DNA of 64,000 nucleotides from Asterias amurensis (taxonomy: Eukaryota), in NCBI RefSeq assembly GCF_032118995.1, contig NC_092655.1:14461223-14525222 (forward strand), written 5' to 3'. The notes below the pieces were generated by a model. That model was given only the letters and a program-made list of their open reading frames with translations, ran no database searches and was not told the DNA's origin. Shown here in pieces: positions 5,165 to 63,553 of this stretch (positions are counted from its first letter, which is position 1; each line of letters begins with the position of its first letter). A program made the position numbers and the translations under genes.

Positions 5165-7330
5165 ACCAATAAAAAGTAAACAAGTGTGTTAAGGACTGTA
5201 TATAAGTGGTGATTTATGTAATGAAGTTTTGTGTTGTAATAATGAATTAAATATAAATTGTAACTTTTATTTTGTGTCACTCTGTAATTCAATTATTTGT
5301 TATTCTTATTGTTTACATGGTATCTGTTCTGGGGTACCCTCACATGGTGGCCACCATGTTTTTTTTACTGGTTACTATATGAAGACATGTAAATATTGTG
5401 ACACACTTGGGGTTTAGTAACTCTTGTTAAAGTTTGTAATGTCAAAGGTCATGACCTTGTGTGTGTTTGAGTACTCATTAACCAGGTTTATTATTACAAA
5501 GGTCTAGACATTGTTCATGGTATTTGTTAGGGATAATCAGTCCAGTTTTTGAGTACTCTTAACGACGTTAAACAAGTGTGTTAAGGACTGTATATAAGTG
5601 GCGATTTATGTAATGAAGTTTTGTATTGTAATAATGAATTAAATATAAATTGTGACTTTTGTTTCGTGTCACTCTGTAATTCAATTATTTATTATTTTAA
5701 TTATTAACATGGTATCTCTTCTGGGGTACCCTCACATGGTGGCCACCATGTTTTTTTACTGGTTACTATATGAAGACATGTAAATATTGTGACACACTTG
5801 GGGTTTAGAACTCTTTTTAAAGTTTGTTATGTCAAAGGTCATGACCTTGTGTGTGTGTTTGAGTACTCATTAACCAGGTTTATTATTACAATGGTCTAGA
5901 CATATTGTTCATGGTATTTATTAAGGATAATCAGTCCAGTTTTTGAGTACTCTTAACGACGTTAGAAAAATGTGTTAAGGACTGTATATAAGTGGTGATT
6001 TATGTAATAAAGTTTGGTATTGTAATAATGAATTAAATATAAATTGTAACTTTTATTTTGTGTCACTCTGTAATTCAATTATTTGTTATTCTAATTGTTT
6101 ACATGGTATCTGTTCTGGGGTACCCTCACATAGTGGCCAGCATGTTTCTTTACTGGTTACTATATGAAGACATGTAAATATTGTGACACACTTGGGGTTT
6201 AGTAACTCTTGTTAAAGTTTGTAATATCAAAGTTTTTGAGTACTCTTAACGACGTTAAACAAGTTTGTTAAGGACTGTATATAAGTGGGGATTTATGTAA
6301 TAAAGTTTGGTATTGTAATAATGAATTAATTATAAATTGTAACTTTTATTTTGTGTCACTCTGTAATTCAATTATTTGTTATTCTAATTGTTTACATGGT
6401 ATCTATTCTGGGGTACCCTCACATGGTGGCCACCATGTTTTTTTACTGGTTACTATATGAAGACATGTAAATATTGTGACACACTTGGGGTTTAGTAACT
6501 CTTGTTAAAGTTTGTAATATCAAAGTTTTTGAGTACTCTTAACGACGTTAAACAAGTTTGTTAAGGACTGTATATAAGTGGTGATTTATGTAATAAAGTT
6601 TGGTATTGTAATAATGAATTAATTATAAATTGTAACTTTTATTTTGTGTCACTCTGTAATTCAATTATTTGTTATTCTAATTGTTTACATGGTATCTATT
6701 CTGGGGTACCCTCACATGGTGGCCACCATGTTTTTTTACTGGTTACTATATGAAGACATGTAAATATTGTGACACACTTGGGGTTTAGTAACTCTTGTTA
6801 AAGTTTGTTATGTCAAAGGTCATGACCTTGTGTGTGTTTGAGTACTCATTAACCAGGTTTATAATTACAAAGGTCTAGCCATTGTCCATGGTATTTATAT
6901 GGATAATCAGTCCAGTTTGTGAGTACTTTAAGAGTCTTAACGACGTTAAAAAAGTGTGTTAAGGACTGTATATAAGTGTTGATTTATGTAATGAAGTTTT
7001 GTATCGTAATAATGAATTAATTATAAATTGTAACCTTTTATTTTGTGTCACTCTGTAATTCAATTATTTATTATTCTAATTATTAACATGGTATCTGTTC
7101 TGGGGTACCCTCACATGGTGGCCACCATGTTTTTTACTGGTTACTATAGGAAGACATGTAAATATTGTGACACACTTGGGGTTTGTAGTAACTCTTTTTC
7201 AAAGGTCATGACCTTGTGTGTGTTTGAGTACTCAATAACCAGGTTTATTATTACAAAGGTCTAGACATTTTCCACGGTATTTATTAAGGGTATGCAGTCC
7301 ATTTTTGGAGTACTCTTAACGACGTTATTT
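5165..7330. repeat. Satellite array with monomers of about 390-400 bp, about 5.5 monomers in copy A. Two are shortened variants of about 300 bp.
   Basis: 'aaacaagtgtgttaaggactgtatataagtgg' recurs at 5170, 5570, 5958, 6265, 6548 and 6948. The conserved core is 'ctggggtaccctcacatggtggccaccatgttttttt'. Confidence 0.92.
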
Positions 7331-13040: not shown

Positions 13041-13406
13041 ACTCGATTATGTAAGATGCTATTGTGTTTGATACCGTTCAATTGCAATTCAAATATAAAG
13101 GGCCATACATTTTTTGACAGAAATTCTTCAGTTTCATTTCCAAATTGTAATCAAAAGGACATCAAGTCTGGGTTAATGTACCGACCAATGGGGAGAGGGT
13201 GATGGTATGAAACGTTGCGAGAACCAACTCCCTCTGAATTAACATAGTTTTCGATTAAGAAGTAATTTCCATGAATTTGGAAATTCTTGATATGTGCGTA
13301 TTATATTGTTCCTTTACTAATTTATGCGGGTTTACTGTATTAATGTTTATTATAATGGTATTCGCTTTTGTACAGTTTATGGAGTGGGCGCAATGTAAAT
13401 GAACAA

Positions 13407-13850
<444 letters not shown>

Positions 13851-14436
13851 ACTCAAGGACCCAATTTTGGGATGCTCTTTGAAATAATGGACCAATTTAA
13901 GGTGAAGGTTTTACAAATTGATATTTTGACTTGATTGACATATTTTCAGGAGTCTGCAGTTCTGCTGGGAATGTGGTGTACTACCTGTCGATGACTGAAG
14001 CTCACAAAACATAGGTACATAGCTAGAGAATTATCTCTTTAATCTCGTCTTCAGGGGAATGCTGGAATGCAGGCGGCGCCGGTGGTGGAGCTTAAGTTGC
14101 GCTGGATGGATGAGCATTTGGGAGGGAAGGATCAGAGCTGTTCTTGGCCGGTGATGCATGAGAGTTAATTGCTGGCTGGATGTGAATTGCATTGGAGTGT
14201 GACATTCTTTAGGTGAGCTGCTGCTGGGAGGGTTGGCTCGAGGATGGGTGACCAGATGTCCATAATGAAGAAACCTATGTCTCGTGGAACTTTATGATGT
14301 GCTTGTTTCTCGATTGCCTCCCTGACTCTGCATTGGTGTCAGGACTGTACAGGAGCTTCGAGTTCGGCTTGATTCCAATTGATGATGTGGTCGTGTTCTT
14401 GTGAATGTTTGATGATGGCTGATTTGTCGAGGTGTC

Positions 14437-27220: not shown

Positions 27221-29775
27221 ACCAATAAAAAGTAAACAAGTGTGTTAAGGACTGTATATAAGTGGTGATTTATGTAATGAAGTTTTGTGTTGTAATAATG
27301 AATTAAATATAAATTGTAACTTTTATTTTGTGTCACTCTGTAATTCAATTATTTGTTATTCTTATTGTTTACATGGTATCTGTTCTGGGGTACCCTCACA
27401 TGGTGGCCACCATGTTTTTTTTACTGGTTACTATATGAAGACATGTAAATATTGTGACACACTTGGGGTTTAGTAACTCTTGTTAAAGTTTGTAATGTCA
27501 AAGGTAATGACCTTGTGTGTGTTTGAGTACTCATTAGCCAGGTTTATTATTACAAAAGTCTAGACATTGTTCATGGTATTTGTTAGGGATAATCAGTCCA
27601 GTTTTTGAGTACTCTTAACGACGTTAAACAAGTGTGTTAAGGACTGTATATAAGTGGCGATTTATGTAATGAAGTTTTGTATTGTAATAATGAATTAAAT
27701 ATAAATTGTGACTTTTGTTTTGTGTCACTCTGTAATTCAATTATTTATTATTTTAATTATTAACATGGTATCTCTTCTGGGGTACCCTCACATGGTGGCC
27801 ACCATGTTTCTTTACTGGTTACTATATGAAGACATGTAAATATTGTGACACACTTGGGGTTTAGAACTCTTTTTAAAGTTTGTTATGTCAAAGGTCATGA
27901 CCTTGTGTGTGTTTGAGTACTCATTAACCAGGTTTATTATTACAATGGTCTAGACATATTGTTCATGGTATTTATTAAGGATAATCAGTCCAGTTTTTGA
28001 GTACTCTTAACGACGTTAGAAAAATGTGTTAAGGACTGTATATAAGTGGTGATTTATGTAATGAAGTTTTGTATTGTAATAATGAATTAAATATAAATTG
28101 TAACTTTTATTTTGTGTCACTCTGTAATTCAATTATTTGTTATTCTAATTGTTTACATGGTATCTGTTCTGGGGTACCCTCACATAGTGGCCAGCATGTT
28201 TCTTTACTGGTTACTATATGAAGACATGTAAATATTGTGACACACTTGGGGTTTAGTAACTCTTGTTAAAGTTTGTAATATCAAAGTTTTTGAGTACTCT
28301 TAACGACGTTAAACAAGTTTGTTAAGGACTGTATATAAGTGGTGATTTATGTAATAAAGTTTGGTATTGTAATAATGAATTAATTATAAATTGTAACTTT
28401 TATTTTGTGTCACTCTGTAATTCAATTATTTGTTATTCTAATTGTTTACATGGTATCTATTCTGGGGTACCCTCACATGGTGGCCACCATGTTTTTTTAC
28501 TGGTTACTATATGAAGACATGTAAATATTGTGACACACTTGGGGTTTAGAACTCTTTTTAAAGTTTGTTATGTCAAAGGTCATGACCTTGTGTGTGTTTG
28601 AGTACTCATTAACCAGGTTTATTATTACAATGGTCTAGACATATTGTTCATGGTATTTATTAAGGATAATCAGTCCAGTTTTTGAGTACTCTTAACGACG
28701 TTAGAAAAATGTGTTAAGGACTGTATATAAGTGGTGATTTATGTAATGAAGTTTTGTATTGTAATAATGAATTAAATATAAATTGTAACTTTTATTTTGT
28801 GTCACTCTGTAATTCAATTATTTGTTATTCTAATTGTTTACATGGTATCTGTTCTGGGGTACCCTCACATAGTGGCCAGCATGTTTCTTTACTGGTTACT
28901 ATATGAAGACATGTAAATATTGTGACACACTTGGGGTTTAGTAACTCTTGTTAAAGTTTGTAATATCAAAGTTTTTGAGTACTCTTAACGACGTTAAACA
29001 AGTTTGTTAAGGACTGTATATAAGTGGTGATTTATGTAATAAAGTTTGGTATTGTAATAATGAATTAATTATAAATTGTAACTTTTATTTTGTGTCACTC
29101 TGTAATTCAATTATTTGTTATTCTAATTGTTTACATGGTATCTATTCTGGGGTACCCTCACATGGTGGCCACCATGTTTTTTTACTGGTTACTATATGAA
29201 GACATGTAAATATTGTGACACACTTGGGGTTTAGTAACTCTTGTTAAAGTTTGTTATGTCAAAGGTCATGACCTTGTGTGTGTTTGAGTACTCATTAACC
29301 AGGTTTATAATTACAAAGGTCTAGCCATTGTCCATGGTATTTATATGGATAATCAGTCCAGTTTGTGAGTACTTTAAGAGTCTTAACGACGTTAAAAAAG
29401 TGTGTTAAGGACTGTATATAAGTGTTGATTTATGTAATGAAGTTTTGTATCGTAATAATGAATTAATTATAAATTGTAACCTTTTATTTTGTGTCACTCT
29501 GTAATTCAATTATTTATTATTCTAATTATTAACATGGTATCTGTTCTGGGGTACCCTCACATGGTGGCCACCATGTTTTTTACTGGTTACTATAGGAAGA
29601 CATGTAAATATTGTGACACACTTGGGGTTTGTAGTAACTCTTTTTCAAAGGTCATGACCTTGTGTGTGTTTGAGTACTCAATAACCAGGTTTATTATTAC
29701 AAAGGTCTAGACATTTTCCACGGTATTTATTAAGGGTATGCAGTCCATTTTTGGAGTACTCTTAACGACGTTATT
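27221..29775. repeat. 390-bp satellite, about 6.5 monomers in copy B
   Basis: Same monomer as at 5165-7330. It has one more unit than copy A (the offset changes from 22056 to 22446). Confidence 0.9.
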
Positions 29776-34949: not shown

Positions 34950-36547
<1,598 letters not shown>

Positions 36548-49724: not shown

Positions 49725-52700
49725 ACCAATAAAAAGTAAACAAGTGTGTTAAGGACTGTATATAAGTGGTGATTTATGTAATGAATTTTTGTATTGTAAT
49801 AATGAATTAAATATAAATTGTAACTTTTATTTTGTGTCACTCTGTAATTCAATTATTTGTTATTCTTATTGTTTACATGGTATCTGTTCTGGGGTACCCT
49901 CACATGGTGGCCACCATGTTTTTTTTACTGGTTACTATATGAAGACATGTAAATATTGTGACACACTTGGGGTTTAGTAACTCTTGTTAAAGTTTGTAAT
50001 GTCAAAGGTAATGACCTTGTGTGTGTTTGAGTACTCATTAACCAGGTTTATTATTACAAAGGTCTAGACATTGTTCATGGTATTTGTTAGGGATAATCAG
50101 TCCAGTTTTTGAGTACTCTTAACGACGTTAAACAAGTGTGTTAAGGACTGTATATAAGTGGCGATTTATGTAATGAAGTTTTGTATTGTAATAATGAATT
50201 AAATATAAATTGTAACTTTTGTTTTGTGTCACTCTGTAATTCAATTATTTATTATTTTAATTATTAACATGGTATCTCTTCTGGGGTACCCTCACATGGT
50301 GGCCACCATGTTTTTTTACTGGTTACTATATGAATACATGTAAATATTGTGACACACTTGGGGTTTAGAACTCTTTTTAAAGTTTGTTATGTCAAAGGTC
50401 ATGACCTTGTGTGTGTTTGAGTACTCATTAACCAGGTTTATTATTACAATGGTCTAGACATATTGTTCATGGTATTTATTAAGGATAATCAGTCCAGTTT
50501 TTGAGTACTCTTAACGACGTTAGAAAAATGTGTTAAGGACTGTATATAAGTGGTGATTTATGTAATGAAGTTTTGTATTGTAATAATGAATTAAATATAA
50601 ATTGTAACTTTTATTTTGTGTCACTCTGTAATTCAATTATTTGTTATTCTAATTGTTTACATGGTATCTGTTCTGGGGTACCCTCACATAGTGGCCAGCA
50701 TGTTTCTTTACTGGTTACTATATGAAGACATGTAAATATTGTGACACACTTGGGGTTTAGTAACTCTTGTTAAAGTTTGTAGTATCAAAGTTTTTGAGTA
50801 CTCTTAACGACGTTAAACAAGTGTGTTAACGACTGTATATAAGTGGTGATTTATGTAATAAAGTTTGGTATTGTAATAATGAATTAATTATAAATTGTAA
50901 CTTTTATTTTGTGTCACTCTGTAATTAAATTATTTATTATTTTAATTATTAACATGGTATCTCTTCTGGGGTACCCTCACATGGTGGCCACCATGTTTTT
51001 TTACTGGTTACTATATGAAGACATGTAAATATTGTGACACACTTGGGGTGTAGTAACTCTTGTTAAAGTTTGTAATGTCAAAGGTCATGACCTTGTGTGT
51101 GTTTGAGTACTCATTAACCAGGTTTATTATTACAAAGGTCTAGACATTGTTCATGGTATTTGTTAGGGATAATCAGTCCAGTTTTTGAGTACTCTTAACG
51201 ACGTTAAACAAGTGTGTTAAGGACTGTATATAAGTGGCGATTTATGTAATGAAGTTTTGTATTGTAATAATGAATTAAATATAAATTGTAACTTTTGTTT
51301 TGTGTCACTCTGTAATTAAATTATTTATTATTTTAATTATTAACATGGTATCTCTTCTGGGGTACCCTCACATGGTGGCCACCATGTTTTTTTACTGGTT
51401 ACTATATGAAGACATGTAAATATTGTGACACACTTGGGGTTTAGAACTCTTTTTAAAGTTTGTTATGTCAAAGGTCATGACATTGTGTGTGTTTGAGTAC
51501 TCATTAACCAGGTTTATTATTACAATGGTCCAGACATATTGTTCATGGTATTTATTAAGGATAATCAGTCCAGTTTTTGAGTACTCTTAACGACGTTAGA
51601 AAAATGTGTTAAGGACTGTATGTAAGTGGTGATTTATGTAATGAAGTTTTGTATTGTAATAATGAATTAAATATAAATTGTAACTTTTATTTTGTGTCAC
51701 TCTGTAATTCAATTATTTGTTATTCTAATTGTTTACATGGTATCTGTTCTGGGGTACCCTCACATAGTGGCCAGCATGTTTCTTTACTGGTTACTATATG
51801 AAGACATGTAAATATTGTGACACACTTGGGGTTTAGTAACTCTTGTTAAAGTTTGTAGTATCAAAGTTTTTGAGTACTCTTAACGACGTTAAACAAGTGT
51901 GTTAACGACTGTATATAAGTGGTGATTTATGTAATAAAGTTTGGTATTGTAATAATGAATTAATTATAAATTGTAACTTTTATTTTGTGTCACTCTGTAA
52001 TTCAATTATTTGTTATTCTAATTGTTTACATGGTATCTATTCTGGGGTACCCTCACATGGTGGCCACCATGTTTTTTTACTGGTTACTATATGAAGACAT
52101 GTAAATATTGTGACACACTTGGGGTTTAGTAACTCTTGTTAAAGTTTGTTATGTCAAAGGTCATGACCTTGTGTGTGTTTGAGTACTCATTAACCAGGTT
52201 TATAATTACAAAGGTCTAGCCATTGTCCATGGTATTTATATGGATAATCAGTCCAGTTTGTGAGTACTCTAAGAGTCTTAACGACGTTAAAAAAGTGTGT
52301 TAAGGACTGTATATAAGTGTTGATTTATGTAATGAAGTTTTGTAACGTAATAATGAATTAATTATTAATTGTAACCTTTTATTTTATGTCACTCTGTAAT
52401 TCAATTATTTGTTATTCTAATTGTTTACATGGTATCTATTCTGGGGTACCCTCACATGGTGGCCACCATGTTTTTTTACTGGTTACTATATGAAGACATG
52501 TAAATATTGTGACACACTTGGGGTTTAGTAACTCTTGTTAAAGTTTGTTATGTCAAAGGTCATGACCTTGTGTGTGTTTGAGTACTCATTAACCAGGTTT
52601 ATAATTACAAAGGTCTAGCCATTGTCCATGGTATTTATATGGATAATCAGTCCAGTTTGTGAGTACTCTAAGAGTCTTAACGACGTTAAAAAAGTGTGTT

Positions 52701-55060
52701 AAGGACTGTATATAAGTGTTGATTTATGTAATGAAGTTTTGTAACGTAATAATGAATTAATTATTAATTGTAACCTTTTATTTTATGTCACTCTGTAATT
52801 CAATTATTTGTTATTCTAATTGTTTACATGGTATCTATTCTGGGGTACCCTCACATGGTGGCCACCATGTTTTTTTACTGGTTACTATATGAAGACATGT
52901 AAATATTGTGACACACTTGGGGTTTAGTAACTCTTGTTAAAGTTTGTTATGTCAAAGGTCATGACCTTGTGTGTGTTTGAGTACTCATTAACCAGGTTTA
53001 TAATTACAAAGGTCTAGCCATTGTCCATGGTATTTATATGGATAATCAGTCCAGTTTGTGAGTACTCTAAGAGTCTTAACGACGTTAAAAAAGTGTGTTA
53101 AGGACTGTATATAAGTGTTGATTTATGTAATGAAGTTTTGTAACGTAATAATGAATTAATTATTAATTGTAACCTTTTATTTTATGTCACTCTGTAATTC
53201 AATTATTTGTTATTCTAATTGTTTACATGGTATCTATTCTGGGGTACCCTCACATGGTGGCCACCATGTTTTTTTACTGGTTACTATATGAAGACATGTA
53301 AATATTGTGACACACTTGGGGTTTAGTAACTCTTGTTAAAGTTTGTTATGTCAAAGGTCATGACCTTGTGTGTGTTTGAGTACTCATTAACCAGGTTTAT
53401 AATTACAAAGGTCTAGCCATTGTCCATGGTATTTATATGAATAATCAGTCCCGTTTGTGAGTACTCTAAGAGTCTTAACGACGTTAAAAAAGTGTGTTAA
53501 GGACTGTATATAAGTGTTGATTTATGTAATGAAGTTTTGTAACGTAATAATGAATTAATTATTAATTGTAACCTTTTATTTTATGTCACTCTGTAATTCA
53601 ATTATTTGTTATTCTAATTGTTTACATGGTATCTATTCTGGGGTACCCTCACATGGTGGCCACCATGTTTTTTTACTGGTTACTATATGAAGACATGTAA
53701 ATATTGTGACACACTTGGGGTTTAGTAACTCTTGTTAAAGTTTGTTATGTCAAAGGTCATGACCTTGTGTGTGTTTGAGTACTCATTAACCAGGTTTATA
53801 ATTACAAAGGTCTAGCCATTGTCCATGGTATTTATATGGATAATCAGTCCAGTTTGTGAGTACTCTAAGAGTCTTAACGACGTTAAAAAAGTGTGTTAAG
53901 GACTGTATATAAGTGTTGATTTATGTAATGAAGTTTTGTAACGTAATAATGAATTAATTATTAATTGTAACCTTTTATTTTATGTCACTCTGTAATTCAA
54001 TTATTTGTTATTCTAATTGTTTACATGGTATCTATTCTGGGGTACCCTCACATGGTGGCCACCATGTTTTTTTTACTGGTTACTATATGAAGACATGTAA
54101 ATATTGTGACACACTTGGGGTTTAGTAACTCTTGTTAAAGTTTGTTATGTCAAAGGTCATGACCTTGTGTGTGTTTGAGTACTCATTAACCAGGTTTATA
54201 ATTACAAAGGTCTAGCCATTGTCCATGGTATTTATATGGATAATCAGTCCAGTTTGTGAGTACTCTAAGAGTCTTAACGACGTTAAAAAAGTGTGTTAAG
54301 GACTGTATATAAGTGTTGATTTATGTAATGAAGTTTTGTAACGTAATAATGAATTAATTATTAATTGTAACCTTTTATTTTATGTCACTCTGTAATTCAA
54401 TTATTTGTTATTCTAATTGTTTACATGGTATCTATTCTGGGGTACCCTCACATGGTGGCCACCATGTTTTTTTACTGGTTACTATATGAAGACATGTAAA
54501 TATTGTGACACACTTGGGGTTTAGTAACTCTTGTTAAAGTTTGTTATGTCAAAGGTCATGACCTTGTGTGTGTTTGAGTACTCATTAACCAGGTTTATAA
54601 TTACAAAGGTCTAGCCATTGTCCATGGTATTTATATGGATAATCAGTCCAGTTTGTGAGTACTCTAAGAGTCTTAACGACGTTAAAAAAGTGTGTTAAGG
54701 ACTGTATATAAGTGTTGATTTATGTAATGAAGTTTTGTATCGTAATAATGAATTAATTATTAATTGTAACCTTTTATTTTATGTCACTCTGTAATTCAAT
54801 TATTTATTATTCTAATTATTAACATGGTATCTGTTCTGGGGTACCCTCACATGGTGGCCACCATGTTTTTTACTGGTTACTATAGGAAGACATGTAAATA
54901 TTGTGACACACTTGGGGTTTGTAGTAACTCTTTTTCAAAGGTCATGACCTTGTGTGTGTTTGAGTACTCATTAACCAGGTTTATTATTACAAAGGTCTAG
55001 ACATTTTCCACGGTATTTATTAAGGGTATGCAGTCCATTTTTGGAGTACTCTTAACGACG
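49725..55060. repeat. 390-bp satellite, about 14 monomers in copy C. A block of 6 near-identical monomers spans about 52290-54700.
   Basis: The monomer period is about 390 bp (for example 52290, 52680, 53070, 53460, 53850, 54240). Array length is 5.3 kb here, against 2.2 kb in copy A and 2.5 kb in copy B. Confidence 0.9.
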
Positions 55061-55870
55061 TTATTTGATAACAAGGTTATGACATTGTTTATGGTGTTTA
55101 CATGTATATACGGTTTCGAGTACTCATTAACGAGGTTTTGTAATTACAAAGGTCATGCCATTTTCTATGGTTTTTATTAAGGGTGTTTGATTCAGGGAAT
55201 GACCGGGTTGGTGGCTGGCGCTGTAAGGTTGACATTGTTTGCAGTGTTAATTATGGGTGTTTGAGTACTCATTAACGATGTATTATGATCTCTTTTCACT
55301 GTTAATTGTGGGGTGGGAGATGACAACCTTCACGTGGTCCACCCTGTTGTTAACTAATTGTCATCAAACAATAGAGCTTTATAACCATGTTTATAAAGCT
55401 CTATGCACCAAACCAATTTGTTAATGACATTGTGATGACATTTTCTTTGGTGTTTATTTAGAGAGTTTGAGTACTCATTAAGGTTGACATTGTTTGCAGT
55501 GTTAATTTAGTGTGTTTGAGTACTCATTAACGATGTATTAGGATCTCTTTTAACTGTTAATTGTGGGGTGGGAGATGACAACCTTCACGTGGTCCACCCT
55601 GTTGTTAACTAATTGTCATCAAACAATAGAGCTATATAAACAAAGCTCTATGCAGCAAAAACAAAATTTTAATTACAAGGTCATGACATTTTCCTTGGTG
55701 TTTATCTAGGGGATTTGAGTACTCATTAACGATGTAGATTTTAAACGATCTCTTTAAACTGTTATTTGTGGGGTGGGAGGTGACAACCTTCACGTGGTCC
55801 ATCCTGTTGTTAACTAATTGTCATCAAACATTAGAGCTATGAATATACAAGTTTAAAGCTCTATACATCA
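55061..55870. repeat. Partial monomer plus the 250-bp satellite in 3 copies (copy C)
   Basis: Colinear with 7331-8150. Confidence 0.85.
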
Positions 55871-59354: not shown

Positions 59355-59895
59355 GTAGGATTCTGGCCCTATGCTTTAGCACTGTGTAGGATTCTGTCCC
59401 TATGCTTTAGCATTTTTTTTGAGTAGGATTCTGGCCCTATGCTTTAGCACTGTGTAGGATTCTGTCCCTATGCTTTAGCACTGTGTAAGATTCTGTCCCT
59501 ATGCTTTAGCATTGAGTAGGATTCTGGCCCTATGCTTTAGCATTGAGTAGGATTCTGGCCCTATGCTTTAGCACTGTGTAGGATTCTGGCCCTATGCTTT
59601 AGCATTGTGTAGGATTCTGGCCCTATGCTTTAGCACTGTGTAGGATTCTGTCCCTATGCTTTAGCACTGTGTAGGATTCTGTCCCTATGCTTTAGCATTG
59701 ACTAGGATTCTGGCCCTATGCTTTAGCATTGAGTAGGATCAGTGCTGGCCCTATGCTTTAGCACTGTGTAGGATTCTGTCCCTATGCTTTAGCACTGTGT
59801 AGGATTCTGTCCCTATGCTTTAGCACTGTGTAGGATTCTTCCCCTATGCTTTAGCACCGTGTAGATTCTGTCCCTATGCTTTAGCATTGAGTAGC
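59355..59895. repeat. Minisatellite of about 17 copies of a 31-bp unit 'gtaggattctg(g/t)ccctatgctttagca(c/t)tg(t/a)'
   Basis: Read directly. It starts exactly where homology to the higher-order repeat unit ends. An inverted core copy 'gagtagagtagaatcctactt' lies at about 60063. Confidence 0.9.
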
Positions 59896-60213
59896 ATTCT
59901 CTGACACTTTCGTCATAAAAACTCATGCTATTCTGCAAACACATTATAATGATCCATGATTAACAAGGCAGAGGGCGCCCTATCTAGCCCTCCGTTGGTT
60001 TCAGCAATCATTGGTTTTGTACAGTACTATATGGAGTAGAGCAGAAAGCACAGAGGTCAATGAGTAGAGTAGAATCCTACTTCGCCTGTGTGGTAAAATT
60101 TTTGTTAACATATCTTGCAGGGTATAATCGAGCGAGCGAGAGTGTGTTGAGTGAGACGGGGAGACTGACAGTTTTTTTCCCCCAAAAACACATTTTTGGT
60201 CGATTCCTATATC

Positions 60214-60254: not shown

Positions 60255-60305
60255 ATGGCTTGCAATGTTTTGACATGTCTGACGAAAATGCGAGTGGCTG
60301 CAAAG
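60255..60305 (+). CDS. Exon 1 (coding part) of an NAD-dependent isocitrate dehydrogenase subunit gene (IDH3 beta/gamma-like). It encodes MACNVLTCLTKMRVAAK and has the donor AAG|GTAAGA.
   Basis: The ATG follows a TATA box. A canonical donor lies at 60306. The reading frame joins exons 2 and 3 in phase 0, giving an N-terminal presequence upstream of the conserved IDH3 block. Confidence 0.5.
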
Positions 60306-60387
60306 GTAAGATAAGAAGTTCAGAATCAAAAAGTTAATAAAACGAGAAACTGGTAACTAAACTAAATGAGCCTGATTAAAAAACTTT

Positions 60388-61059
60388 GGGGTCTCATATT
60401 TAGGGCCTTTTTAACGCTTTTCGTTTTTCAAATCAGATCGGTGCGCATGACAACCCAACAAGGTGGGACAAACAATTCTGTGGAAGGGGTGTTACAAGGG
60501 TACTACTACACAACGCGTTGGACAGGTGTTGAATATAGTTCGTAGTTTCACCACACGTGGCGGTGCTGTTCGAGAAGAGAGCACACCTGTCCAACGCGTT
60601 GTGTTGTAGTAGCCTTGTAACACCCCTTCCACAGAATTGTTTGTCCCACCTCGTTGGGTTGTCTTGCACACCGATCAGTGGTCATGCGCTGTGAGTGTGA
60701 GGTCATCGACTGATACCAGCAAGCACAGCGCTGGTGACCCACTACTAAAGCGTTGAACATATTGTGAGAGGTCACAGACGTGACCCCGACATGACAGAAC
60801 GTGTTGCCGTGACAACGAAGCAACGGACAGCAATCGTAATTACCGAGTAGAAAATTGCCTTTTTTGAAGAAATTATTGAACGTAACTCAACAAAAGGAAA
60901 ATACAAGCATTATGAATGTATTGAGTAGGATGGGGAAAGCTTTAGTGTACAGTACACATGAAAATTCAGTTCTGGCTGGCTAACGGTCCCAAAACTTTCA
61001 CCCATCAAGGCTGATTTGACAAACGTATAGTGTTAAAAAGCCCCTTAATTTGAGACCCC
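60388..61059. mobile_element. Candidate non-autonomous DNA transposon (MITE-like) bounded by imperfect 28-bp TIRs 'ggggtctcatatttagggcctttttaac' and 'gttaaaaagccccttaatttgagacccc'
   Basis: The TIRs lie at 60388-60415 and 61033-61059, with about 24 of 28 positions matching. No clear TSD is seen, which may mean TA or none. It lies in IDH3 intron 1. Confidence 0.4.
60436..60680. repeat. Near-perfect inverted repeat (hairpin) with arms of about 95 bp at about 95% identity and a loop of about 53 bp
   Basis: The left arm 'gatcggtgcgcatgacaacccaacaaggtgggacaaacaattctgtggaaggggtgttacaagggtactactacacaacgcgttggacaggtgt' is the reverse complement of the right arm '...acacctgtccaacgcgttgtgttgtagtagccttgtaacaccccttccacagaattgtttgtcccacctcgttgggttgtcttgcacaccgatc'. 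Confidence 0.85.
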
Positions 61060-62094
61060 TATAAGGCTCACAGGGGAGCCTTATAGTTTCTAGAAGTAGA
61101 CAGGGAAGCTAAACGAACGCACCCACTGCCACTTACACTTGCACGTGACATGTACTTATCGTAGCATCATACAATATCGACCCTCATATGTTTTCGAACC
61201 CCCAACTTTGATTATCGTTTACCGCGAGATTGTGCAAGCTGCACCGGTTGCAGAATCTATGCAGTTTACTCACGGTCTGTATTTTTATTAGGCTTAATCA
61301 TGCTGAGAACAAAGTTTCCTGACGTTGGTTGCTCAAATATTTATAAAATGATAGATTTTTGGTACAAAATACTAGTGCATTATGATGCCAACATTCAATT
61401 GAGTCAAAGAAACATCATCCAACCTCAAAAGTTCAAAACAAAATTACTATCTGCAAGATTGAGTTTCATTCTTTTTTAGTCACTAAACTAATAACATTTG
61501 TGGGCGACTTTAATTACTAAGGGGTAACTTTGTCAGAAGGCGACATTACCAGTGGGCGACTTTGTAACGACCCGGGGGCAAGCCAGTAATAGGGGGTTAT
61601 AGCAGGGGGTGACTTTGTTTGGGGCAAGCTGGCTAGGGGACAAGATGACCCTGAGCCCCCCCTCTTTAATCCTCCATCCTCCTGTGGGCTGACGGGATCG
61701 TCAAACACTGTCAAAGGAAGATGGAGGGCTATGACTTTAGTTATCATAGAAGAAGGTCCTCTACTGGTAGGGCGTTGAGTCCCTGTCTCGCTTGGTGGAG
61801 TATGGAGAGTCTGTTGGTAGTTCCTCTGTCCTTTAACCCTTCTACTGATACACCATTCAAAACCATTCAAAATTCACTAACGTTTACAACCCCATCGGTT
61901 TTGTACACACATGACAGTACCATTTGAGCAGGGTTGATGATAAGCTGTACTATCACTCAAAACCATTCAGATGGTTTCGAGCTGTGCATAACCTGTACAT
62001 GTGTGCATTACCATAGCCGAATGGTTTCAGATGGTCAGCAAGCTGTTTAACAAATCCTGTAGTGTCTATGACATAGTGTGTGGTAACCTCGTAG

Positions 62095-62565
62095 CCAAGG
62101 CGAGATTGGTCACCCCCACACCGCCTGGTATCACTCAGTCATGACAAAGTGGGATCCTTGATGCACCACTTAAAACAATCCTCATGGGGTTCTATACCAG
62201 CTGCACCACCATTCAGGATTTTAGTTATACTGCTATGACGTGAGTAGTCGTTTACTACAAATCTGGCAGCCCTGTGTTGAACCTGTTCAATTTTCATTGA
62301 TGAGAATCTGTCTGGGTGGATCCCAAACAGAAGATGAATATATTCAAGTAAGGGATGGACCAGAGTAAGACAAGCATTTTCTTTGAAGTGTTTGGGACAG
62401 GAGTAGAGGTTCCTTTTAATGAAACCGAGAGATCTATTTACGGATGCAGTAACTATGTTAGGTGTTTATTCTAGGAAATATTGTTGGTGAGCTCAACTCC
62501 AAGATAAGTGTGATGCTTATTTGTCTCTAGTGTTGACTGACAGAGGGTGTAATCACAGAGCATGG
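62095..62565 (-). mobile_element. Degenerate 3' fragment of a non-LTR retrotransposon (CR1/L2/Rex-like LINE ORF2 C-terminal region)
   Basis: The - strand translation 'CQSTLETNKHHTYLGVELTNNIS' and 'LVHPLLEYIHLLFGIHPDRFSSMKIEQVQHRAARFVVNDYSRHSSITKIL' matches the conserved LINE ORF2 tail '...YLGV.ID..L.W...LVRPHLEYC...VQRRAARF(V)...DY.R.SSVT.ML'. It contains stops and lies inside IDH3 intron 1. Confidence 0.6.
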
Positions 62566-62665
62566 GACTTTTTGGCATTTAGGCGCAAAAGAGAACACAA
62601 CTTACAAGAAAACATGATTTAGGGCCTACCTATTTAATATCATTTTGCCTAATTTTGTTTTTCAG

Positions 62666-62725
62666 TTGCCGTCAAGTCAATTGGTGAGAGCTCTGTCAAC
62701 TGGCCAATATTGTATGAAACCTGCA
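62666..62725 (+). CDS. Exon 2 of the IDH3-like gene (LPSSQLVRALSTGQYCMKPA)
   Basis: Acceptor 'ttttgtttttcag|TTGCCG' and donor 'CCTGCA|gtaagt'. The length is 60 nt (phase 0 to 0). Confidence 0.5.
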
Positions 62726-63413
62726 GTAAGTTTGCATTTGTTAATAACAAGTCAATAGGAAAGGCATGATTCATGGAGAGAGAAAACAAGTCCATGTTAG
62801 AGTAATTATTTTCATAAATACAAGTTAAATTAAAGGAACATTACAGACTTGGTTTTGCTAGCAAAAAATTTGCTGGCAGTGTAAGCACTTTATGTAATCC
62901 ACCATATACATTTAAACTGAAACTGACAAACGTGTAGAAGTTTGAGATTGATCGGCCATCTGGGTCACAAGAGAATAGTGAAAATTTTTGCATTGCATTG
63001 ATGCCAAAACGAAAATGAATAAACTGTAAACTCAAAACGCAAAATTAGATTATTTATTTTTTATCAAATATGAAATTTCAGACAGAAATATTTCAAGGGA
63101 TATTTTCTACTATCATTATCATTAGACGGTGTAAGTTTTATGTAAATTTGTGATCTTCACGAGTTTTGTTTATTACCAATTCTGGAACGTTCCTTTAAGA
63201 CAGTAAACTGTCCAAATATAATATAGCAATGGCTGTTGGTTCCAGTTCAATCATGTGACCTGTGACATGAGAAAATGTATCAAATTTGTCTTCACGAGCA
63301 TCCTGAAATTCGCCCCTGGTATACCTTTCATCATCTTTGATATCGACAATCATGTGAAGATGATGTCTCTATATAAAATAAACCAAATACCGAATTTGAA
63401 TATTTTTTGTCAG

Positions 63414-63553
63414 ACACCAGCTGTTAAGCCAGAAACCAGAAGGACTGTGACGTTAATCCCAGGAGATGGGGTAGGACCAGAGCTCATGCAGTCCGTACGG
63501 GAGGTTTTTAAAGGTGCTGGGGTACCTGTAGATTTTGAAGAGCTTTTTGTCAG
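63414..63553 (+). CDS. Exon 3 of the IDH3-like gene ([46 protein letters not shown]), coordinates +/-2
   Basis: '[17 protein letters not shown]...F..A.VPVDFEE' is the conserved N-terminal block of mature NAD-IDH regulatory subunits. Compare human IDH3B/IDH3G 'TVTM(L/I)PGDG(V/I)GPELM...VPV(E/D)F(Q/E)E'. The acceptor is 'tttttgtcag|ACACC' and the donor is 'GTCAG|gtaggt'. Confidence 0.65.

Follow-up and report, generated by a model that had tools for sequence, protein, structure and literature searches.

A 142-nt inverted repeat split by a 334-bp segment: a candidate foldback-type element relic in the predicted intron 1 of an IDH3-like gene from a sea star

A 64-kb stretch of DNA from the sea star Asterias amurensis (hereafter, the window) carries, in the predicted first intron of an IDH3-like gene, a 142-nt inverted repeat that encloses a 53-nt spacer and whose right arm is split by a non-repeated segment of 334 bp. 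The first-pass annotation of this DNA had described two objects at the site: a near-perfect hairpin of 245 bp and, surrounding it, an element of 672 bp with terminal inverted repeats (TIRs) of 28 bp. Realignment of the arms shows that “hairpin” and “TIRs” are parts of one inverted repeat, a structural re-parse that is secure, and that they derive from an ancestral foldback of 337 bp (142 + 53 + 142 nt), whose right arm was later split. With regard to its origin, we consider it somewhat probable that the locus is the decayed, non-coding relic of a foldback-type mobile element, with ends leaning toward the Helentron type, which was split by repair and is now passive in the intron of the IDH3-like gene. 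The features on which this account is based are listed in Table 1.

Table 1. Coordinates of the split inverted repeat, its flanks and the exons of the host gene (window positions).
Feature	Position	Strand	Basis
Predicted IDH3-like exon 1, coding part (MACNVLTCLTKMRVAAK)	60255..60305	+	Prediction; ATG-initiated, donor AAG/GTAAGA at 60306
TTT run just outside the left repeat end	60385..60387	+	Sequence
Left arm of the continuous 142-nt inverted repeat	60388..60529	+	Aligns to the reverse complement of 60583-60676 + 61012-61059
53-nt spacer (loop)	60530..60582	+	Sequence, RNA fold, arm alignment
Right arm, inner 94 nt	60583..60676	+	5 mismatches to the left arm
Non-repeated segment splitting the right arm	60677..61010	+	Junction alignment
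Right arm, outer 49 nt (earlier “right TIR”)	61011..61059	+	7 mismatches to 60388-60436
Perfect 11-bp stem with 6-nt loop (CTATAAGGCTC ACAGGG GAGCCTTATAG), abutting the right repeat	61059..61086	+	DNA fold
IDH3-like exon 2	63414..63553	+	AG and GT splice sites; protein matches

The inner part of the structure was returned by an inverted-repeat search of the window as two 94-nt arms (60436-60529 and 60583-60676) that are 95% complementary and stand 53 nt apart. The arms differ at five paired positions (60444/60668, 60448/60664, 60460/60652, 60500/60612 and 60507/60605). The earlier description of arms of about 95 bp with 4-5 mismatches around a 53-bp loop containing CACGTG is borne out, and the hairpin is real, but pairing ends at 60676 and not at 60680, which gives a length of 241 nt. 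As RNA, this hairpin is predicted to fold at -184.6 kcal/mol on the + strand and at -188.9 kcal/mol on the - strand, compared with a mean of about -75 kcal/mol for shuffled sequences (z = -22 and -24, respectively); none of 200 shuffles was as stable. The potential to form dsRNA that had been proposed for the locus is confirmed by these values, and the stem is of the long, near-perfect intramolecular kind expected of an hpRNA or endo-siRNA source. Within the loop, the CACGTG hexamer occupies 60554-60559 and forms part of a mini-palindrome, CACC-A-CACGTG-GC-GGTG, which lies no more than 0.5 nt off the symmetry centre of the hairpin (60556). The rest of the loop is asymmetric, with 10-18 of about 52 positions matching its own reverse complement.

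The outer inverted repeats are likewise real, and longer than previously described: 60388-60436 and 61011-61059 form 49-nt repeats with an identity of 86% and seven mismatches. When the window was searched with a 20-nt pattern of the TIR tip, allowing 3 mismatches, two sites were found, both of them the ends of the element, with 0 expected by chance. On the left side, the supposed TIR (60388-60436) and the hairpin arm (60436-60529) are contiguous and have base 60436 in common. On the right side, the hairpin arm ends with a C at 60676 and the outer repeat begins with a C at 61011, base 61011 being a duplicate of 60676. Once 60677-61011 is taken out, the right side aligns without a gap to the whole of the left block, with 130 of 142 positions matching (91.5%), and this alignment crosses the supposed boundary between TIR and arm, where CAAATCAGATCGGTG is found on both sides. 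Therefore, the hairpin and the outer repeats belong to one and the same inverted repeat, and the separate nested element of the first-pass annotation was a misparse. That the hairpin seemed to abut the left TIR so precisely on its inner side is explained by one event, the split of the right arm by 334 bp. In the reconstructed 337-mer, inverted repeats make up 284 of 337 bp, and the minimum free energy of its RNA fold is -243.9 kcal/mol.

A truly nested arrangement would consist of a young foldback MITE of 241 bp, flanked by a 3-bp CAG duplication, inside an older element of 430 bp with its own 49-bp TIRs. CAG is indeed present on both sides of the arms if the tips are taken to be ATCGGTG/CACCGAT, and the inner arms are less diverged (5/94, 5.3%) than the outer repeats (7/49, 14%). 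However, this difference is not significant (Fisher p = 0.11) and the inner and outer parts are, consequently, consistent with one age, while the CAG match comes down to two free bases of coincidence next to tips whose GATC is itself palindromic. Moreover, the insertion would have had to occur exactly at the edge of the left TIR, and the arm would have to run seamlessly into the right TIR upon removal of the 334 bp. The nested arrangement was dropped, as the gapless 142-nt alignment explains both boundaries by one event, and we regard it as most improbable.

The 334-bp segment breaks into the right arm at a distance of 94 nt from the spacer. At its left junction, CACCGATC is followed by AGTGG..., and at its right junction, ...CAAGG is followed by CTGATTTG, with a single duplicated base (C). 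No target-site duplication (TSD) was detected at these junctions, which share this one C only, and no inverted repeats were found at the termini of the segment. Its first half is GC-rich and its second half is AT-rich, and a protein search revealed no long open reading frame (ORF) with homologues in it. The first 12 nt of the segment (GTGGTCATGCGC) match arm sequence (GTTGTCATGCGC) at 11 of 12 positions; the match is to the left-arm version, and the matching arm sequence is situated 8-19 nt upstream. Because the junction homology is limited to one base and the first 12 nt copy nearby arm sequence, the segment looks like templated filler that would have been introduced by a later repair event at the palindrome. 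Alternatively, the left arm may have undergone a reciprocal deletion, in which case the segment would be the surviving copy rather than an insertion. A Helitron (TC...CTRR ends, A-T insertion) or an HLE2 element (T-T insertion) was also considered for the segment and rejected, since inspection of the junctions by eye revealed no fit.

In a separate, post hoc observation, the segment was found to contain four RGGTCA nuclear-receptor-type half-sites within 90 bp (60700-60786). Nowhere else in the 64-kb window, whose background is 1.4 per kb, are such half-sites clustered as densely, and the cluster includes the palindrome GGTCAC-AGAC-GTGACC as well as a 16-nt direct repeat (GTGWGAGGTCAYMGAC).

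The outer ends of the inverted repeat were analyzed for traces of an insertion. No exact TSD of 3-10 bp was found within offsets of +/-4, and no approximate TSD of 6-10 bp either, though the criterion for the latter is passed by 52% of random position pairs. The dinucleotides that flank the outer repeats are TT and TA. The stem-loop that abuts the right repeat (DNA fold -9.6 kcal/mol, z = -3.3) is directly followed by a second TTT at 61087-61089, and the only exact direct repeat of at least 3 nt at the ends of the element is this TTT/TTT pair, provided that the element is taken to include the stem-loop. Perfect 10-bp stems are infrequent in the window, as only 22 were found in its entire 64 kb, many of them redundant.

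Ends of this kind have been described for the HLE2 group of rolling-circle elements and their HINE derivatives, which terminate in inverted repeats, carry a stem-loop after the right repeat and insert between two T residues without generating a TSD (PMC4067079; PMC7492417; PMC11417382). In these families, the repeats measure 11-18 nt, the left one starts 2-4 nt from the 5' end, and a palindrome of 5-10 bp is found near the 3' end (PMC4067079; PMC7492417; PMC11417382). Among echinoderms, the group is represented by Helentron proteins reported from the sea star Patiria miniata and from sea urchins (PMC4067079, supplement 8). The layout of the locus resembles the published end definitions: the left repeat begins 3 nt after the start of the TTT run and its first 9 nt are perfect, although it extends well beyond the published length; the right repeat is followed by the perfect 11-bp stem; and the TTT runs on both sides, with no TSD, would be consistent with insertion between two T residues. 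In common with HINE, DINE-1 and Cg_HINE, the locus shows a stem-loop directly after the right repeat, T residues in the flanks and the lack of both a TSD and coding sequence. The missing TSD, the stem-loop behind the right repeat and the runs of T in both flanks speak more for a Helentron-type (HLE2) origin than for a cut-and-paste one.

Within the foldback-type reading, the specific proposal that the locus is a non-autonomous Helentron-type (HLE2/HINE-like) element, inserted between T and T without a TSD and recognised by way of its terminal inverted repeat and 3' stem-loop, nevertheless appears doubtful. The left repeat does not end after 11-18 nt, as in all described families, but extends to 142 nt. 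The stem-loop is nearer to the 3' end, at 1-4 nt from the putative terminus, compared with 8-35 nt in the HINEs of mites (PMC4067079). Central tandem repeats or microsatellites and a 5' inverted repeat, which are often found in HINE/HLE2 elements, are absent here, and GGGGTCTCA... showed no likeness to the tabulated subTIRs of mite, mosquito and fly HINEs. The argument from the T flanks, in turn, consists of 3 nt per side.

Foldback transposons provide a match for the architecture with long repeats, and they are known from sea urchin, as mentioned in PMC4079207 (citing Liebermann 1983). As in Drosophila FB, Tetris and Galileo and the sea-urchin TU element, the inverted repeats account for most of the element, the middle domain is short, and the whole is small and non-coding. 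Foldback elements generate TSDs of 7-10 bp and most of them are related to Mutator or P elements (PMC4079207); many, though not all, contain tandem sub-repeats in their arms. The locus differs in having neither a TSD nor sub-repeats, as a search of 60388-61059 for tandem repeats found none. Compared with cut-and-paste MITEs, it shows terminal inverted repeats (142 nt, 91.5%) and a short, non-coding body, again without a flanking TSD of the length specific to a superfamily. The element measured 337 bp in its ancestral form and measures 672 bp now, and its six-frame segments have no homologues. The class initially suggested for the locus, a foldback or MITE, remains the best one.

The main competitor to the mobile-element reading is a local inverted duplication that never was mobile. 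Here, a template switch would have copied 142 nt in reverse beside a native arm and spacer, and a second repair event would have added the 334 bp. Such a duplication predicts the lack of a TSD at the outer ends equally well, and it would agree with the finding of a single copy in the window and the collections searched. The mini-palindrome at the symmetry centre and the 11-bp stem-loop at the right breakpoint could have stalled replication or primed fold-back synthesis, and the junction of the insert, with its 1-nt homology and templated-looking 12-mer, points to a history of repair at this site. Fold-back priming at the central mini-palindrome would, however, have rendered the whole spacer symmetric, whereas it is asymmetric. 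Base composition is a further difficulty. GC content ranges from 0.45 to 0.54 inside the element and from 0.31 to 0.43 in the flanks, and the CpG observed/expected ratio is 0.83 in the element compared with 0.50 in the rest of the intron. Arms and spacer that exceed the intron around them in GC and CpG are unexpected if they are native, and this difference modestly favours a foreign origin. In invertebrate genomes, short inverted-repeat elements of such a size are overwhelmingly derived from transposons. Taken together, we rate a local duplication as an appreciable possibility, though an improbable one on balance.

A second copy of the element would speak for mobility, and none was found in the window or in the searchable collections. 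A blastn search of the 64-kb window (word size 7, E <= 10) returned only the element itself, and exact-pattern scans of viral, metagenome and prokaryote contigs with the arm core and a degenerate TIR tip gave zero matches. At the protein level, the stop-free six-frame segments of the element, joined into a chimeric query, had no match at E <= 0.001 among 5.8 billion proteins; an 82-aa read spanning the hairpin had none among 1.84 billion representatives that were searched exhaustively with phmmer; and exact look-up found none of the three ORFs of the element on record. The collections do not contain the source genome, as its IDH3 exon, the exon-2 ORF and even the high-copy Penelope ORF of the window are not on record in them. 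For this reason, the negative copy searches are uninformative and do not help to decide between a transposon family and a single duplication event.

The foldback-type reading, like its competitor, places the repeat in a host gene whose structure is known to different degrees. The peptide encoded by exon 2 (...VPVDFEE) matches proteins that are named isocitrate dehydrogenase (NAD+) by their sources, and it matches the N-terminus of the Pfam family Iso_dh with E = 0.0018, below the gathering cut-off. It is well supported that exon 2 encodes the N-terminal core of a subunit of NAD-dependent isocitrate dehydrogenase. Exon 1 is a prediction, and the length of its presequence agrees with that of the relative P0012. 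The predicted intron 1 spans 60306-63413 (3.1 kb), and the repeat begins 82 nt into it, on the sense strand. The location in intron 1 of IDH3 given by the first-pass annotation is judged to be correct, and the host-gene context is plausible. The orthologous intron was not found by way of IDH3 relatives, the best matches being fragments of 67-82% identity from distant animals whose loci share exon 2 only. In one of these IDH3 loci (L002, ENA contig ctg26374l), a gene for a piggyBac-type transposase of 641 aa (PF13843 DDE_Tnp_1_7) was noticed at 1036-2961; this gene precedes the IDH3 exon by about 7 kb and has no relation to the foldback.

An intronic position on the sense strand is also the starting point for a functional interpretation, according to which the locus is a small-RNA gene, either an intronic source of hpRNA or endo-siRNA or a miRNA precursor, that is co-expressed with IDH3. 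The very stable, near-perfect 94-bp stem in the predicted intron is in line with this interpretation, and small-RNA genes derived from MITEs or other inverted repeats are well documented, mainly in plants. The locus resembles MITE-derived hairpin RNA and proto-miRNA loci in that a transposon-like inverted repeat lies in a presumably transcribed region and could give rise to a long, near-perfect dsRNA. Precursors of animal miRNAs are hairpins that measure about 60-80 nt and contain an imperfect stem of some 33 bp, and a stem of 94-142 bp is far longer than, and incompatible with, this canonical form. A search of Rfam returned nothing at the gathering threshold and chance-level matches only at E <= 10, and ARAGORN detected no tRNA-like part in the element. 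Given the stem length and the chance-level Rfam matches, the earlier suggestion of a miRNA-precursor-like locus is not supported.

The differences between the arms are informative in this respect. Both transitions among them are CpG-to-TpG/CpA changes, which produce C-A and A-C mismatches on the + strand and are tolerated as G-U pairs only on the - strand. Judged from the sequence, this combination of CpG decay and transversions indicates a pattern of apparently neutral drift, in which pairing on the sense strand would not be maintained; signs of its upkeep are missing. Furthermore, no homologue was found in the protein collections searched, which are without the source genome, and hence no conservation was seen. 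A functional small-RNA locus is, accordingly, very unlikely.

Several other features were observed in the same intron. A second candidate miniature inverted-repeat element of about 369 bp is located at 62830-63198, with 24-nt inverted repeats that are 88% identical (TTAAAGGAACATTACAGACTTGGT / ACCAATTCTGGAACGTTCCTTTAA) and with TA (or TTAA-like) flanks that are compatible with a TA duplication of the Tc1/mariner type. A short ORF on the - strand at 62139-62297 (QHRAARFVVNDYSRHSSITKIL) has no Pfam match; we take it to resemble the C-terminal tail that is conserved among the LINE proteins of invertebrates. Finally, a GC-rich block (0.51-0.59 GC) at 61500-61870 contains an ORF of 117 aa, again without a Pfam match.

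The gene itself adjoins a large repeat region. Over positions 1-59,354 of the window, a 22.4-kb unit is repeated in tandem about 2.6 times, with approximately 99% identity between the copies. Each unit includes Penelope-like copies (RT + GIY-YIG-like), arranged as head-to-head inverted pairs of 4 kb that are about 85% identical. Satellite arrays with a period of about 400 bp, whose copies are 90-98% identical, occur at 5177-7327, 27233-29773 and 49737-55063, and the last of these has expanded to about 13 units directly before the unique gene region. Long trinucleotide microsatellites of the ATT/AAT type, which grade into other simple repeats and read as poly-Ile/poly-Asn ORFs, are found at 13368-13934 and 35815-36441, one per 22-kb unit. 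The boundary between the 22-kb repeats and the unique sequence is marked by a 31-bp minisatellite (59355-59900; unit GTAGGATTCTGGCCCTATGCTTTAGCACTGT) with 17.3 copies and 89% matches. The predicted start codon of the IDH3-like gene follows about 350 bp further downstream. A Penelope-like ORF of the window shares 95% identity with a protein encoded on an ENA metagenome contig (L003), which matches the repeat unit with 98% DNA identity over 6.3 kb, and it shows 69% protein identity and about 82-84% DNA identity to a locus of Asterias rubens (L004). No trace of the foldback element was detected in these two loci.

In the favoured scenario, a non-autonomous foldback-type DNA element would have landed 82 nt into intron 1 of the IDH3-like gene of a sea star. 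While active, it would have depended for its movement on an enzyme acting in trans that recognises its terminal repeats. The 334-bp segment would have been added later, by repair at the palindrome, and the locus today is most likely a neutral passenger. If the + strand is transcribed, the RNA could form the near-perfect 94-bp stem as well as an outer stem of 48 bp that closes over the insert. Such intronic dsRNA might then serve as a substrate for dsRNA-editing or dicing enzymes before the intron is turned over.

For annotation purposes, we suggest masking the locus as a foldback of repeat origin that is split by a 334-bp segment, and it should be listed neither as a nested element nor as an RNA gene. 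It is an ordinary repeat-derived feature of little importance beyond annotation. With a junction homology of 1 nt and a templated-looking 12-mer, the split right arm represents a small natural example of repair at a long palindrome. A more far-reaching interpretation, which we deem unlikely, holds that the foldback is the first recognised member of a sea-star Helentron-type family whose terminal inverted repeat is unusually long (142 nt), and/or that its 94-bp stem yields endo-siRNAs or undergoes heavy A-to-I editing upon transcription of IDH3. Should genome-wide copies confirm the combination of Helentron-type ends with a 142-nt repeat, the structural range of this group in echinoderms would be modestly widened, and if the stem were so processed or edited, the locus would constitute a transposon-born hairpin-RNA locus in an echinoderm.
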